A DNA stretch of 34,605 nt from a virus (lineage: Duplodnaviria > Heunggongvirae > Uroviricota > Caudoviricetes), in the IMG/VR virus record IMGVR_UViG_2690316131_000023. One strand, written 5' to 3'. A program made the translations under genes and the position numbers. The notes under the pieces are model-generated. The model saw only the letters and a program-made list of their open reading frames with translations, ran no database searches and was not told the DNA's origin. Of this stretch, positions 1-8,146 are shown in pieces; position 1 is the first letter of the stretch, and each line of letters opens with the position of its first letter.

Positions 1-177
<177 letters not shown>

Positions 178-244
178 CCAATTAATGAAATTCATGGCGT
201 AAACCCGCCGGGCATTCCTTTATCTAAATTCAGGAGAATTGATT

Positions 245-478
245 ATGCGTAATATTGAAACCCTCTCGACTAAAACCGGACCGGATGACGCAGGACTTAA
301 TATTTTACTGACAGAGGCTCGTCTGGAAGAACGTCGGGCAAGGGCTGAGGCAATGGCTGCCCGCCTTGATAGCCTTGCGTGTCATATCACATCCCGCCAG
401 CTAAACCACGTCGAAGCAGCAGAACTGCTGCGTGTGACTGCTGAAGCAATCCAGAACGAAGCGCAGGAGGTCCACTAA
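245..478 (+). CDS. small hypothetical early protein (P2 orf80-region-like)
   Basis: ORF 239-478; first ATG at 245 preceded by AGGAG (232-236); stop overlaps the next start (TAATG). Confidence 0.45.
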   Translation: MRNIETLSTKTGPDDAGLNILLTEARLEERRARAEAMAARLDSLACHITSRQLNHVEAAELLRVTAEAIQNEAQEVH

Positions 479-705
479 TGGCTGATGCAATGGATCTCGT
501 ACAGCAGCGCGTTGAAGAAGAACGCCAGCGCCATATCCGTGCTGCCCGTACCAAAACGCCGGGCGTGTCCCGCGTACTTTGCATTGAATGTGAAGCGCCA
601 ATTCCGCCAGCACGACGCCGCGCCATTCCGGGTGTGCAGCTTTGCATTACCTGTCAGGAAATCGCAGAGCTGAAAGGCAAGCACTACAACGGAGGTGCTG
701 TATGA
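478..705 (+). CDS. TraR/DksA-family C4 zinc-finger protein
   Basis: 75 aa with CxxC...CxxC (CIECEAPI...CITCQ) typical of the DksA/TraR zinc finger; GGAGG RBS at 464-468. Confidence 0.7.
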
Positions 706-1004
706 CAAGGGCAGTGCGTATCCATCAATTAAAAATTGCACCTAAGTATTTCAACGCTGTGGTTGCAGGTCAAAAGACGGCTGAACTTCGTAAAGACGAT
801 CGTGGCTATAAAGTTGGTGATGTTCTTTCTCTTTGCGAATGGAAGCATGCTGTATTTACGGGTAGGGAATGGGCCGCTGTTATCTCTCATGTGCTTCCGG
901 CTAATGACGTCATGGCAGTTTCAGAAAAATGGGTGATGCTATCAATTCGCCCATTAACCCCATTAGAAGCTTTAGGATATGTTATTGCAGGAGGTGCTGT
1001 ATGA
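702..1004 (+). CDS. hypothetical protein, possibly DUF3850/ASCH-like
   Basis: ORF 642-1004; internal ATG at 702 preceded by GGAGGTGCTGT, the same RBS context as the next gene; sits in an operon with dam. Domain call is recollection only. Confidence 0.4.
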
Positions 1005-1858
1005 GCACCATCCTGAAATGGGCGGGAAATAAAACCGCCATTATGTTCGAACTGAAAAAACACCTTCCTGCTGGCCCGCGACTGGTTGAACCTTTCGCGG
1101 GTTCCTGTGCTGTGATGATGGAGACGGATTACCCCAGCTATCTGGTTGCGGATATTAATCCTGATTTAATCAACCTCTATAAAAAGGTTGCCGCTGATTG
1201 TGAATCGTTTATATCTCGCGCCAGAGCTTTATTTGAGGAAGCAAACAGGGAGGTGGCTTATTACAACATAAGGCAGGAGTTTAATTACTCCACTGAAATT
1301 ACTGATTTCATGAAAGCGGTATATTTCCTGTATCTCAATCGTCATGGTTACCGTGGATTATGTCGCTATAACAAGAGCGGGCATTTCAACATTCCGTACG
1401 GTAATTATAAAAATCCGTATTTCCCTGAAAAAGAAATTCGCGCATTTGCAGAGAAAGCCCAGCGTGCAACGTTTATCTGCGCAAGCTTTGATGAAACGCT
1501 GGCGATGCTGCAGGTGGGGGATGTGGTGTATTGCGATCCGCCGTATGACGGTACGTTTTCCGGCTATCACACTGATGGTTTCACTGAAGATGACCAGTAT
1601 CACCTGGCATCCGTTCTTGAACATCGGTCATCAGAAGGACATCCGGTCATTGTTTCTAACAGTGATACATCCCTGATCCGTTCGCTGTATCGCAATTTTA
1701 CTCACCACTACATCAAGGCAAAACGCAGCATCGGTGTAGCAGCTGGTGAGAGTAAATCTTCAACAGAAATCATCGCTGTTTCCGGGCCGCGCTGCTGGGT
1801 GGGATTTGATCCTTCGCGTGGCGTGGATAGTTCTGCCGTGTACGGAGTGCGTGCATGA
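1001..1858 (+). CDS. dam: DNA adenine methyltransferase (Dam-like, N6-adenine)
   Basis: N-terminal ILKWAGNK and FAGSCAV (SAM-binding) plus the DPPY catalytic motif (VYCDPPYDG); start at the internal ATG 1001 with GGAGG RBS. Confidence 0.85.
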
Positions 1859-4269
1859 GCCATGCTGATATGAACAACTGCAGCGGCTTTAACGAGGTCG
1901 CCGCAGCATTCTCATGGAACAGCCCGAAAAAGGCCATTAACCCTTATCTGGACCCGGCGGAAGTTGCGCCGGTTTCTGTGCTTTCAAACCTGATCACTCT
2001 GTACGCTACCGATAACGAGCAGGAACAACTGCGCCGCGAGGCTCTGAGTGATCAGGTATGGGAGCGTTATTTCTTTAATGAATCACGTGATCCTGTCCAG
2101 CGCGAAATGGAGCAGGATAAGCTCATTAGCCGGGCAAAGCTGGCGCATGAGCAGCAGCGTTTTAATCCGGGCATGGTCATCCTGGCGGACGTTAACGCCC
2201 AGCCTTCCCATATCAGCAAGCCGCTGATGCAACGTATTGAATACTTCAGCAGCCTGGGCAGGCCAAAGGCTTATTCCCGCTATTTGCGTGAGACGATTAA
2301 GCCATGTCTGGAACGACTGGAGCATGTACGCGACAGTCAGCTATCCACTTCTTTTCGCTTTATGGCAAGCCATGAAGGGCTGGACGGTCTGCTGATCCTG
2401 CCTGAAATGAGTCAGGATCAGGTGAAACGCCTGTCCACCCTGGTAGCTGCGCATATGAGCATGTGCCTTGATGCCGCTTGTGGCGATTTGTATGCCACCG
2501 ATGACGTTAAGCCAGAAGAAATCCGCAAGACATGGGAAAAGGTGGCGGCGGAAACCCTGCGACTGGATGTCATACCACCTGCGTTTGAGCAACTCCGCCG
2601 GAAAAGAAACCGCCGTAAACCCGTGCCCTATGAACTCATTCCGGGGTCGCTGGCGCGTATGCTGTGCGCCGACTGGTGGTATCGGAAATTGTGGAAGATG
2701 CGTTGCGAATGGCGGGAAGAGCAGTTGCGTGCTGTTTGCCTGGTCAGCAAAAAAGCATCTCCCTATGTCAGCTATGAAGCCGTGATGCATAAACGTGAGC
2801 AGCGCCGTAAGTCGCTGGAGTTTTTCCGTTCTCATGAACTGGTGAACGAAGACGGCGACACGCTGGACATGGAGGATGTGGTAAACGCCAGCAGCAGCAA
2901 CCCTGCGCATCGCCGCAATGAGATGATGGCCTGTGTTAAAGGTCTGGAGCTTATCGCGGAAATGCGCGGTGACTGCGCCGTTTTCTACACCATCACCTGT
3001 CCGTCACGTTTCCATTCCACGCTAAATAACGGCAGGCCCAACCCGACCTGGACAAATGCGACGGTAAGACAAAGCAGTGATTATCTGGTCGGCATGTTTG
3101 CTGCATTTCGTAAGGCGATGCACAAAGCCGGGTTGCGCTGGTATGGCGTGCGGGTGGCTGAGCCGCATCATGACGGCACAGTTCACTGGCACCTGTTGTG
3201 TTTCATGCGCAAAAAAGACCGCCGCGCCATTACTGCATTGTTGCGTAAGTTTGCTATCCGTGAAGACCGCGAGGAGCTGGGTAATAACACGGGGCCACGC
3301 TTTAAGTCTGAGCTGATAAACCCGCGCAAAGGAACGCCGACTAGCTACATCGCGAAATACATCAGTAAGAACATTGACGGGCGTGGTCTGGCTGGCGAGA
3401 TCAGCAAGGAAACGGGTAAATCTCTGCGTGATAACGCTGAATACGTTAATGCCTGGGCGTCTCTGCATCGTGTTCAGCAATTCCGCTTCTTTGGCATTCC
3501 GGGGCGTCAGGCTTACCGTGAACTGCGATTGCTGGCTGGTCAGGCGGCAAGGCAACAGGGTGACAAAAAAGCAGGTGCGCCGGTACTGGATAACCCGCGC
3601 CTTGATGCCATTCTGGCTGCAGCTGATGCTGGTTGTTTTGCCACCTACATCATGAAGCAGGGCGGCGTACTGGTTCCCCGTAAATATCACCTCATCAGAA
3701 CCGCTTATGAAATCAACGAAGAGCCGACCGCCTATGGCGATCACGGCATTCGTATTTATGGCATCTGGTCACCCATTGCAGAGGGCAAAATCTGCACTCA
3801 TGCCGTGAAGTGGAAAATGGTTCGTAAGGCCGTTGACGTTCAGGAGGCGGCAGCCGACCAGGGCGCTTGCGCCCCTTGGACTCGTGGCAATAACTGTCCC
3901 CTTGCTGAAAATTTGAACCAACAGGAGAAAGATAAATCAGCTGATGGGGACACCAGAACGGATATTACCCGCATGGATGACAAGGAGTTGCACGATTATC
4001 TGCATAGTATGAGCAAAAAAGAGCGCCGGGAACTGGCAGCAAGGTTACGCCTGGTTAAGCCGAAACGGCGTAAAGACTACAAACAGCGAATTACAGATCA
4101 TCAGCGACAGCAGCTCGTCTATGAACTGAAGTCCAGAGGATTTGATGGCAGCGAGAAAGAGGTCGATTTACTCCTTCGCGGTGGCAGTATTCCGTCAGGA
4201 GCAGGCCTGCGTATCTTCTATCGGAACCAGCGTTTGCAGGAAGATGATAAGTGGAGAAACCTGTATTAA
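1855..4269 (+). CDS. A: P2 gpA-like rolling-circle replication initiator (replication endonuclease)
   Basis: 804 aa; HWHLL histidine motif and YIAKYISK tyrosine motif typical of P2/186 A proteins; canonical position. Confidence 0.9.
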
Positions 4270-4338
4270 TTACGCGGGTTAACAATTCGTGCTCTTAATA
4301 ATACCAGGCATATCAGGCTGATGAACGTAAAAAAACGT

Positions 4339-4381
4339 TTTACATCAGTAAGATTATTATATACTGTAAATATAAACAGTG
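4339..4381 (+). promoter_or_regulatory. candidate SOS promoter: -35 TTTACA (4339-4344), -10-like TACTGT overlapping a LexA box TACTGTaaatataaACAGTG (4362-4381)
   Basis: CTGT-N8-ACAG at 4364-4379 matches the LexA box consensus; it is part of a perfect 14-bp inverted repeat (4362-4375 / 4383-4396), about 40 bp upstream of ORF 4422. Confidence 0.55.
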
Positions 4382-4421
4382 GTTATATTTACAGTATTGC
4401 TTTGGTGTCATAGGAGGAAAG

Positions 4422-4610
4422 ATGCAGGACTATTTTTTGGAGTCTTTGAAGCTCCAGCGCATTGATTTTTTTCTTAAGCTTGTAGCGGCTAGTGAGTGTA
4501 GTGATGAAGAGAAGGGGCTGGCTCTGCAGTGGGTTTCTGAACTGACAGATGAACTCATGGCAAAAATCAGAACCCACGAATACAACCGCTCAATGGATGT
4601 CATCAGCTGA
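4422..4610 (+). CDS. small hypothetical protein (62 aa), first gene of the LexA-controlled pair; possibly the N-terminal part of a Tum-like antirepressor
   Basis: Strong RBS AGGAGG (4412-4417) then ATG 4422; overlaps the following DinI-like ORF in another frame. Confidence 0.45.
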   Translation: MQDYFLESLKLQRIDFFLKLVAASECSDEEKGLALQWVSELTDELMAKIRTHEYNRSMDVIS

Positions 4611-4620
4611 GGTGACTTTT

Positions 4621-4854
4621 ATGCGCATTGAAATAATGATCGATAAAGAGCAGAAGATTAGCCAGTCTACACTGGACGCCCTTGAATCCGAGCTTTACCG
4701 CAATCTGCGCCCCCTGTATCCCAAAACGGTAATTCGTATTCGCAAAGGTAGCTCTAACGGTGTGGAACTGACCGGACTGCAACTGGACGAAGAAAGAAAA
4801 CAAGTGATGAAAATTATGCAGAAGGTGTGGGAAGACGACAGCTGGCTGCATTAA
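4621..4854 (+). CDS. DinI-family protein (DinI/MsgA-like, 77 aa)
   Basis: MRIEIMIDK...LESELYRNLRPLYP...MKIMQKVWEDDSWL aligns by eye with E. coli DinI (MRIEVTIAK...ILQETWESADDW); start taken at internal ATG 4621. Confidence 0.75.
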   Translation: MRIEIMIDKEQKISQSTLDALESELYRNLRPLYPKTVIRIRKGSSNGVELTGLQLDEERKQVMKIMQKVWEDDSWLH

Positions 4855-4989
4855 GAAACGTTGCTGGCGTCTGAACTTGTTTCTGGCGTCAGCAAGGTTG
4901 AACAACGAGCCCTTGCGAGGCGTTAGCTCTGTAGTGCATGTCTATGCCGCATGAGATCGCATGATCGTTTGAGGATCGTTTTTGCTAAG

Positions 4990-5014
4990 GCCCGCCAGAA
5001 CTGGCGGGCTTTTG
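4990..5014 (+). terminator. rho-independent terminator (GCCCGCCAG-AA-CTGGCGGGC then TTTTG)
   Basis: Perfect 8-9 bp GC-rich stem at 4991-5008 followed by a T-run; downstream of the dinI-like gene. Confidence 0.55.
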
Positions 5015-5057
5015 CGTAGATCATGCACCTGCATGAAAACCACTACATAAAGCGGGC

Positions 5058-5076
5058 AGGCGTGGCGGGGATACGA
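5058..5076. other. candidate cos (cohesive end) site, 186/P2-like
   Basis: GGCGTGGCGGGGA at 5058-5070 matches my recollection of the first 13 nt of the 186 cohesive end (GGCGTGGCGGGGAAAGCAT; P2 GGCGAGGCGGGGAAAGCAC), followed by GCGCGCGCT. Confidence 0.5.
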
Positions 5077-5129
5077 GCGCGCGCTATCACGTAAAATAGG
5101 CAAAATACTTCTGGAAAACAGAAAGTTGA

Positions 5130-7076
<1,947 letters not shown>

Positions 7077-7117
7077 TGAACAGCCCTAACGTTATGAATG
7101 CTAAGGCTGATTTTTCG

Positions 7118-8146
7118 TTAAAATTTATATGGTTTGAATTGTAATATATTATCTTCAAGCCATTTATTTAATTCCTGCATCCTTTTCTGTAAGGGTATTA
7201 ATTCGTTCCTCACAAACACTAAACTCGCTTTTTCCACATCCCCAAACCCCCCGACATTATTTGGCATAATCCCCATCATTTGCGGTGGCACACGGTGCGC
7301 TGCCATCATGTCATCGCGGCTGACATTTTTGATATTCAGAAACTCATCCTTCGCCGCCACTTCTGACAACGGGATAATCTGAAGCCCGTCCTTTTTACCG
7401 TTAGGCGAGTACATAAACAGGTTACGGAAGTTACCAGGACCTTTGGCGCTTTTCATCGCATTGCGGAGGTTGTTCACATCCTCCTGGTTCTGCGCTGCAT
7501 CGGTCATGTACATGATGAAGCCTGCATGACTGCCGTTAATGTAATACTTGCGGCGGAACAGCGTGGCGGACTCGTTGAGCAGAGCTGACGGAATGGCAGA
7601 AAGATAACCGGGCAGGCCGTAGATCTCCTGGTTGATGTCCGGTTCCATCAGATGAAAAATGTTGCCTTTCGTGAACTGATACGGCTGCGTAGTCATGCCG
7701 TATTGCACAAACCAGTAGGTATCAAGGTCTAACCCGCGTCGGGTGTATTTTGCCAGTGCAGGCTCAAGGGCGATAACTTCACCGAAGCGGTTCGTGCGTT
7801 TCTCCAGGTAGGCGTTACCAAAAACCAGATAGTCCTGTACAAAACGCGAAAAAGCCTGCTGGCTGAGCAGCGGGTGAGGGATGTAGGTGCTGGTCAGAAT
7901 GTTGCACTTCACTGCAATCGGTGAGCTGTGATGCACGGCGGCGCGGAAGGTTCGCGCCAGTCCGTCGAAACTCACAGGCGGCTCGTACCAACGATCCATC
8001 TGTACGCATTCCACATAGTCCAGCAGTTCGCGGCGGTCCAGAACAGGAACGGGATCACCGAAGCTGAATGCTTCGGCTGAAGTCTGGCTTTTATGCTGGA
8101 TCTGTTTCGTCGACGCAGCGCGGTTCTTCTTACTCTTTCCCATCAA
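7118..8146 (-). CDS. Q: P2 gpQ-like portal protein
   Basis: 342 aa, minus strand, directly downstream of terminase P in the canonical Q-P arrangement. Confidence 0.9.
   Translation of the reverse strand: MMGKSKKNRAASTKQIQHKSQTSAEAFSFGDPVPVLDRRELLDYVECVQMDRWYEPPVSFDGLARTFRAAVHHSSPIAVKCNILTSTYIPHPLLSQQAFSRFVQDYLVFGNAYLEKRTNRFGEVIALEPALAKYTRRGLDLDTYWFVQYGMTTQPYQFTKGNIFHLMEPDINQEIYGLPGYLSAIPSALLNESATLFRRKYYINGSHAGFIMYMTDAAQNQEDVNNLRNAMKSAKGPGNFRNLFMYSPNGKKDGLQIIPLSEVAAKDEFLNIKNVSRDDMMAAHRVPPQMMGIMPNNVGGFGDVEKASLVFVRNELIPLQKRMQELNKWLEDNILQFKPYKF

Follow-up and report, generated by a model that had tools for sequence, protein, structure and literature searches.

Counterparts of the three genes considered here have already been characterised or catalogued, namely the Dam methylase of the Ec67 element (1990), P2 Orf82 and P2 Orf91. 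The 34-kb Ec67 element is credited with a Dam methylase in later papers citing Hsu, Inouye and Inouye (1990 PNAS 87:9454), in agreement with an earlier note on the present DNA, and Dodd and Egan (1996 Virology 219:115) are cited for its being a 186-related prophage, or 'retronphage'. P2 Orf82 belongs, with lambda Orf73 and F TraR, to the RNA polymerase (RNAP) secondary-channel regulators, which have a C4 zinc finger and a DxxD tip in common with the protein described below (PMC9239242, PMC6970531). It competes with DksA for RNAP, inhibits rrnB P1 in the absence of ppGpp (IC50 250 nM) and can complement the loss of dksA; there is no Ala (A8) in its DxxDxA tip, and its activity, although present, is weaker (PMC9239242). 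P2 Orf91 is a member of the DUF3850 family (PF12961), for which a structure from Enterococcus faecalis (3iuw) is available and which corresponds to PHROG 986 ('RNA-binding protein'); the ASCH signature GxKxxExR is common to these proteins, and no member has an assigned function. DUF3850 is also mentioned in a preprint of 2025 about prophage-encoded ParB-CTPase fusions.

The window analysed here, i.e., the whole 34,605-nt stretch of viral DNA, is an element of the same kind as the Ec67 element: a ~34-kb P2/186-like prophage in which retron Ec67 adjoins the portal gene and which likewise has a 285-aa Dam homologue 5' of gene A. At the level of these features, no substantive difference between the two was detected. 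According to the ORF calls, positions 478-1858 hold three genes on the + strand, flanked by a DUF2732 gene on one side and replication gene A on the other. The features of this region are as follows.

245-478, + strand: DUF2732 gene (P2 Orf80 family; PF10809, 6e-29; PHROG 128), the first in the coupled run
478-705, + strand: TraR/DksA-family C4 zinc-finger protein, 75 aa (P2 Orf82 family; PF01258, 3e-11)
691-705, + strand: direct repeat copy 1, GGAGGTGCTGTATGA, which spans a Shine-Dalgarno sequence, the final four codons of TraR (GGAV) with its stop, and the overlapping ATG of DUF3850
702-1004, + strand, ATG at 702: DUF3850/ASCH protein with a PUA-like fold, 100 aa (P2 Orf91 family; DUF3850 6e-24, ASCH 4e-5)
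990-1004, + strand: direct repeat copy 2, GGAGGTGCTGTATGA, which spans a Shine-Dalgarno sequence, the final four codons of DUF3850 (GGAV) with its stop, and the overlapping ATG of Dam
1001-1858, + strand, ATG at 1001: Dam-family (D12 class) N6-adenine DNA methyltransferase, 285 aa (PF02086 MethyltransfD12, 3e-76)
1855-4269, + strand: replication initiator/endonuclease gpA (gene A; PF05840 Phage_GPA, 1e-127)

Family assignments from Pfam, NCBIfam and PHROGs agree for the gene run. They bear out the earlier note, which had recognised a TraR/DksA zinc finger and a Dam-like DPPY methylase and had guessed, correctly, that the small ORF between them would belong to DUF3850/ASCH. All three exact proteins are already present in public databases under the names TraR, DUF3850 and Dam, and they are ordinary, annotated accessory genes of a common P2/186-like prophage family. 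The sole new detail is a precise 299-bp cassette polymorphism that is bounded by a duplicated 15-nt junction and concerns the DUF3850 gene. Taken as a whole, we consider it very likely that the locus is an early operon that carries a TraR-type regulator and a GATC-methylating Dam together with a dispensable DUF3850 cassette.

The three genes upstream of gene A overlap from stop to start, as had been noticed previously, through 4-nt ATGA overlaps at 702-705, 1001-1004 and 1855-1858, and the DUF2732 stop and the TraR start overlap within TAATG at 476-480. Each overlapping start is preceded at a distance of 6-8 nt by GGAGG or GGAG, which lies inside the upstream gene. Since the starts overlap the preceding stops, the run is probably translated by coupled re-initiation. 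We could not find any sigma-70-like promoter on the + strand in positions 1-5200 or any match to Rfam families in positions 1-7200, which fits a single polycistronic early message; on the same grounds, independent expression of Dam from an internal promoter or RNA element was rejected. Terminator-like matches on the + strand inside the genes were weak (5-6 bp stems), with 11 observed versus ~5.8 in shuffled sequences, and antisense ORFs in 387-741 and 1358-1624 were taken as shadows of the annotated genes. Positions 245-4269 would thus represent the distal part of the early (lytic) operon in a P2-family prophage of the 186/Fels-2-like type, which harbours retron Ec67 as well, with DUF2732, TraR, DUF3850, Dam and gpA presumably read off one polycistronic message.

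The TraR homologue scores above the family cutoffs of both PF01258 (zf-dskA_traR; 43.5 bits, cutoff 24.9) and TIGR02419 (65.9 bits, cutoff 59.7), and matches the structures of TraR (5w1s/6n57, 3e-9) and YbiI (2kgo, 9e-11). Its C4 zinc finger can be read directly as C35xxC38-17-C56xxC59. The protein is 47% identical to P2 Orf82 and occupies the same position in the P2-family early operon; the genes next downstream are DUF3850 and Dam here but Orf83 (DUF5405) in P2. Compared with the DxxDxA motif, its N-terminal tip (D3-A-M-D6-L-V8) keeps both Asp residues and has Val in place of Ala, a residue that P2 Orf82 lacks as well. By analogy with P2 Orf82, lambda Orf73 and F TraR, the protein most likely binds the RNAP secondary channel and mimics the action of DksA plus ppGpp, which would lower the activity of rRNA promoters and raise that of amino-acid promoters. 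It is therefore best regarded as a regulator that most likely reprograms host transcription during lytic growth.

Assignment of the third gene to the Dam family is clear from PF02086 (257 bits, cutoff 22), TIGR00571 (322 bits, cutoff 114.85) and the EcoDam structures 2g1p/4gol (1e-73). The D12-class fold and the DPPY motif are common to EcoDam, T4 Dam (1q0s/1yfj), P1 Dam and the phage protein, in which DPPY (motif IV) is located at residues 179-182 (nt 1535-1546) and aligns with that of EcoDam. Six of six EcoDam residues that we take to be GATC- or DNA-contact positions (K9, Y119, L122, R124, P134 and Y138), whose roles were reportedly worked out by Horton and colleagues in 2006, are kept in the aligned phage protein. 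It differs from EcoDam in motif I (F32-A-G34-S-C36 versus FxGxG, the last Gly being replaced by Cys), in two substitutions (N120 to R and R137 to N), in a C-terminal extension of 22 residues, the final codons of which overlap the gene A start, and in being phage-borne within an early lytic operon. Its score of 288 bits against the NCBIfam host-Dam equivalog is below the cutoff of 441, as expected for a phage paralogue. The exact sequence was found on 119 contigs, and one of the 4038 members of its 90% identity cluster bears the name 'retron EC67 DNA adenine methylase'. Specificity of this methylase for GATC is a well-supported prediction from homology and the prior literature, although the altered motif I and the substitutions of N120 and R137 speak against taking activity and strict specificity as certain.

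The biological role of the methylase can be approached from its distribution and its position. The TraR-Dam block is present in phages of E. coli, Salmonella, Klebsiella and Yersinia, hosts that already methylate GATC, and what advantage a second Dam would confer is therefore not obvious. As the hosts methylate GATC and Dam would be made together with the replication initiator, maintenance of phage-DNA methylation is favoured over a primary anti-restriction role: the enzyme most likely ensures that phage DNA undergoing rapid replication stays fully methylated when host Dam becomes limiting, and full methylation would evade activities directed at unmethylated or hemimethylated GATC, namely MutH nicking, SeqA binding and, in a new host, DpnII/MboI-type restriction. 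The other possibility, which we consider unlikely but deserving of some weight, is that Dam is primarily an anti-defence protein that pre-empts GATC-cutting restriction or methylation-sensing defences in new hosts. Phage Dams are widely seen as anti-restriction functions (10.1101/2020.06.22.160242). The spread of the block across phages of the four genera is in line with such a role, as is the only mild under-representation of GATC in the window (110 sites, observed/expected 0.74): the site is not avoided, so that protection would be needed. However, DNA packaged in Dam-positive hosts should already be largely protected, and the product of an early-operon gene comes only after the injected DNA has been exposed. 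Methylation maintenance thus remains the favoured role.

The DUF3850 protein was assigned by PF12961 (84.4 bits, cutoff 22.9) and PF04266 (ASCH; 24.7 bits, cutoff 21.2). Modelling with AlphaFold from 29 homologues gave a confident structure (pLDDT 88) with a PUA-like beta-barrel fold, whose closest relatives are ASCH proteins and N4-acetylcytidine (ac4C) amidohydrolase, not YTH. E. coli YqfB, the ac4C amidohydrolase (9kyf), is 15% identical, a resemblance at the level of the fold and not of family membership. The motif GxKxxExR, reportedly described as the ASCH-domain signature by Iyer and colleagues in 2006, is kept as G23-Q-K25-T-A-E28-L-R30; among the 29 homologues G23 is invariant, K25, E28 and R30 are conserved in at least 90%, and several basic residues are conserved besides. 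On the basis of this signature, the conserved basic surface and the PUA-like/ASCH fold, we propose that the protein may be a nucleic-acid-binding or base-modification-processing accessory protein, dispensable and independent of Dam. P2 Orf91 is 44% identical to it and has 109 aa instead of 100; its gene follows gene A, whereas the gene examined here precedes Dam and gene A and forms an indel of precisely 299 bp with the 15-nt repeat on either side.

Because DUF3850 lies directly 5' of a D12 Dam, usually with overlap, in nine P2-like lineages (the window, L002-L005 and L079-L083), an adjacency that persists down to 57% identity in DUF3850 and 53% in Dam, the two could be imagined as a writer-reader pair, with DUF3850 reading, binding or processing N6-methyladenine or another modified base. 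We regard this as improbable, since each gene is often found without the other. Dam occurs without DUF3850 in ~94% of the E. coli prophages of the P2/186-like family; conversely, P2 has no methylase and carries its DUF3850 gene (orf91) elsewhere, Yersinia phage MHG51 has DUF3850 without Dam, and so do the loci L085 and L086, where DUF5405 comes next. We also examined ORFs within 3 kb on each side of 73 DUF3850 loci in other bacteria. When the first 148 of these ORFs (~28 loci, outside the P2 family) were compared with Pfam, only two were D12 methylases, and ParA-type ATPases, VRR-NUC, Rep, SSB and HNH proteins dominated; a general DUF3850-methyltransferase linkage was therefore rejected. The relatedness of the fold to ASCH proteins and not to YTH also argues against such a pair. 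A slightly less probable version holds that DUF3850 is a PUA-like reader or eraser of a nucleic-acid modification (one that binds DNA with m6A in GATC or hydrolyses a modified host-RNA base, for instance) that tunes or exploits the adjacent Dam, its scarless cassette serving as a population-level on/off switch. We conclude that DUF3850 is a free-standing accessory gene of early/replication modules, usually but not always located beside Dam in P2-like prophages.

The earlier note had also pointed out that two of the genes share one ribosome-binding context, and GGAGGTGCTGT indeed stands upstream of the starts of DUF3850 and Dam alike. The match extends to an exact 15-nt direct repeat, whose two copies are 299 nt apart. 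Comparison with other genomes reveals what this repeat delimits. In a megablast search of positions 200-1900 against phage genomes, 43 records cover at least 80% of the query, and those listed have ~96% identity, 83% cover in two pieces and a span shorter by 299 nt. Exactly 299 bp are absent from Salmonella phage RE-2010, many Klebsiella phages and most E. coli prophages, one 15-mer being kept; in the RE-2010 alignment, the gap runs exactly from repeat to repeat and TraR is joined directly to Dam. Of 5426 complete E. coli genomes, 1244 have the TraR-Dam block and 76 the DUF3850 cassette, and only two states were seen among the E. coli matches listed, with spans of ~1399-1402 or 1698-1701 nt. 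The middle gene is therefore an optional presence/absence cassette of 299 bp. The term 'cargo', which had been applied to all three genes, suits this cassette only, as TraR and Dam are standard backbone genes.

It is very improbable that the identical 15-mers arose by chance or by convergence imposed by a Shine-Dalgarno sequence and an ATGA overlap, without duplication of a junction. Some constraint does exist, since the pattern GGxGGxGxxxxATGA recurs at further junctions of diverged relatives and GG-x-x forms the C-terminus of many DUF3850 proteins. However, the match is exact over all 15 nt, including the unconstrained TGCTGT; a search allowing up to two mismatches returned three matches (two exact and one with two mismatches), a number reached in none of 100 shuffles (mean 0.06, largest 1); and the cassette-less relatives have exactly one 15-mer, with a gap that coincides with the repeats. 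The duplicated junction is thus preferred, and the shared ribosome-binding context results from its flanking the indel and does not represent an independent regulatory design. In diverged relatives (65-79% identity in DUF3850), the junction pairs are similar but non-identical, and the duplicated-junction architecture is therefore old. As both borders of the cassette are the same 15-nt junction, its loss or gain always restores a working coupled junction. Such loss or gain could proceed by recombination, either from one repeat to the other or inside the flanking genes, which are ~96% identical, and the common cassette-less form may derive from deletion mediated by the repeats or from exchange via these flanks.

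The co-occurrence of Dam with an Ec67-like retron in one element, which had also been pointed out, is real, the window containing msr/msd and a 586-aa reverse transcriptase (RT) at 5316-7076, which the PGAP names identify as that of Ec67, but it is nothing special: the Ec67 retron was found in only 15 of the 5426 complete E. coli genomes versus 1244 for the TraR-Dam block, which indicates that the combination came with the backbone and does not reflect a functional link. At least eight Ec67-retron prophages have the cassette, and those of S10 and NCTC8623 are without it. In E. coli B REL606, a strain with retron Ec86, the same TraR-Dam block is present but lacks the cassette, so that prophages with either retron carry this Dam. 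Four GATC sites are clustered at 4955-5019, 5' of msr. In genomes without the retron, the match to the 5030-7100 query is confined to its initial 77-80 nt (ending at ~5106-5109), and the retron-specific sequence therefore starts 3' of this cluster, which belongs to backbone sequence common to retron-free prophages; the lack of GATC in msr/msd (5100-5320, ~200 nt) is uninformative, the chance of such an absence being ~0.6. A functional tie between Dam and the retron, through regulation of the RT promoter by GATC methylation or through interaction with msDNA, can hence be given hardly any credence, even though overexpressed Dam triggers retron Sen2 by methylating GATC in its msDNA (10.1101/2020.06.22.160242).

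The pairing of Dam with the retron is accordingly not to be read as functional, and the TraR-Dam block is a standard part of a prophage family that about one in four complete E. coli genomes contains. The cassette neatly illustrates, on a small scale, how tiny genes are exchanged in P2-family early operons while translational coupling stays intact. DUF3850/P2 Orf91 is a widespread phage protein, and the natural isogenic pairs with and without the gene make it easy to test.

No GATC site was found in the msr/msd region of retron Ec67 (window 5100-5320), although its absence in about 200 nt is not statistically meaningful, and therefore the co-resident Dam methylase would have no canonical target in msDNA-Ec67. 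In this respect, msDNA-Ec67 differs from retron Sen2, which is triggered by overexpressed Dam via GATC methylation in its msDNA, but a stretch of this size is too short for the difference to carry statistical meaning. Immediately upstream of msr, four GATC sites (4955, 4963, 4974, and 5019) are present within 65 bp, versus an average of one per ~315 bp for the window. The features of this region are as follows:

4622-4854, dinI-like gene
4955-5019, GATC cluster, between the dinI-like gene and the terminator-like hairpin region, just upstream of the retron msr
about 4990-5013, terminator-like hairpin

This cluster could be a Dam- or SeqA-sensitive element. Hsu (1990) reportedly drew attention to GATC sites close to a promoter. 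A 20-nt inverted repeat was also observed within the 5' portion of gene A (arms 1980-1999 and 2046-2065), whose arms are 85% complementary, lie 46 nt apart, and each contain TGATCA, i.e., one GATC site.

The spacer between the dinI-like gene and the retron differs among Ec67 prophages. From the dinI-like gene to the Ec67 reverse transcriptase gene, E. coli S10 is ~580 bp longer than the window and has additional small ORFs, and NCTC8623 contains an opposite-strand hypothetical gene (352 aa). The region around the retron is a hotspot for cargo. A mosaic breakpoint was observed at window 1-143: the match of near-identical E. coli prophages begins only at base 144, and the DUF5347 genes of RE-2010 and NCTC8623 both fail to align with the 3' end of the gene that precedes DUF2732. 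This segment is a different allele or gene compared with the relatives.

In Yersinia phage vB_YpM_MLG42 (PP599993), the TraR and Dam genes were left out of the deposited annotation, which instead has an antisense ORF (2280-2477). Both genes are intact in the ORF listing:

2271-2498, TraR gene, 75 aa
2788-3645, Dam gene, 285 aa

DUF3850 genes in Lachnospiraceae and other Bacillota prophage loci (L007-L064) are typically longer (about 108-140 aa). Their neighbouring ORFs include those for ParA-type ATPases (11 of 148) and VRR-NUC nucleases (9 of 148), and Rep/SSB genes are likewise found near DUF3850 in these loci. The proximity to ParA agrees with the ParB-CTPase-DUF3850/parA association (bioRxiv 10.1101/2025.10.10.680097). 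Phage P2 also encodes a DUF3850 protein, which is 44% identical to that of the window:

4817-5146 (phage P2), orf91, which immediately follows gene A and overlaps its stop

DUF3850 is a small module that occupies different early-operon slots in different P2-family phages.
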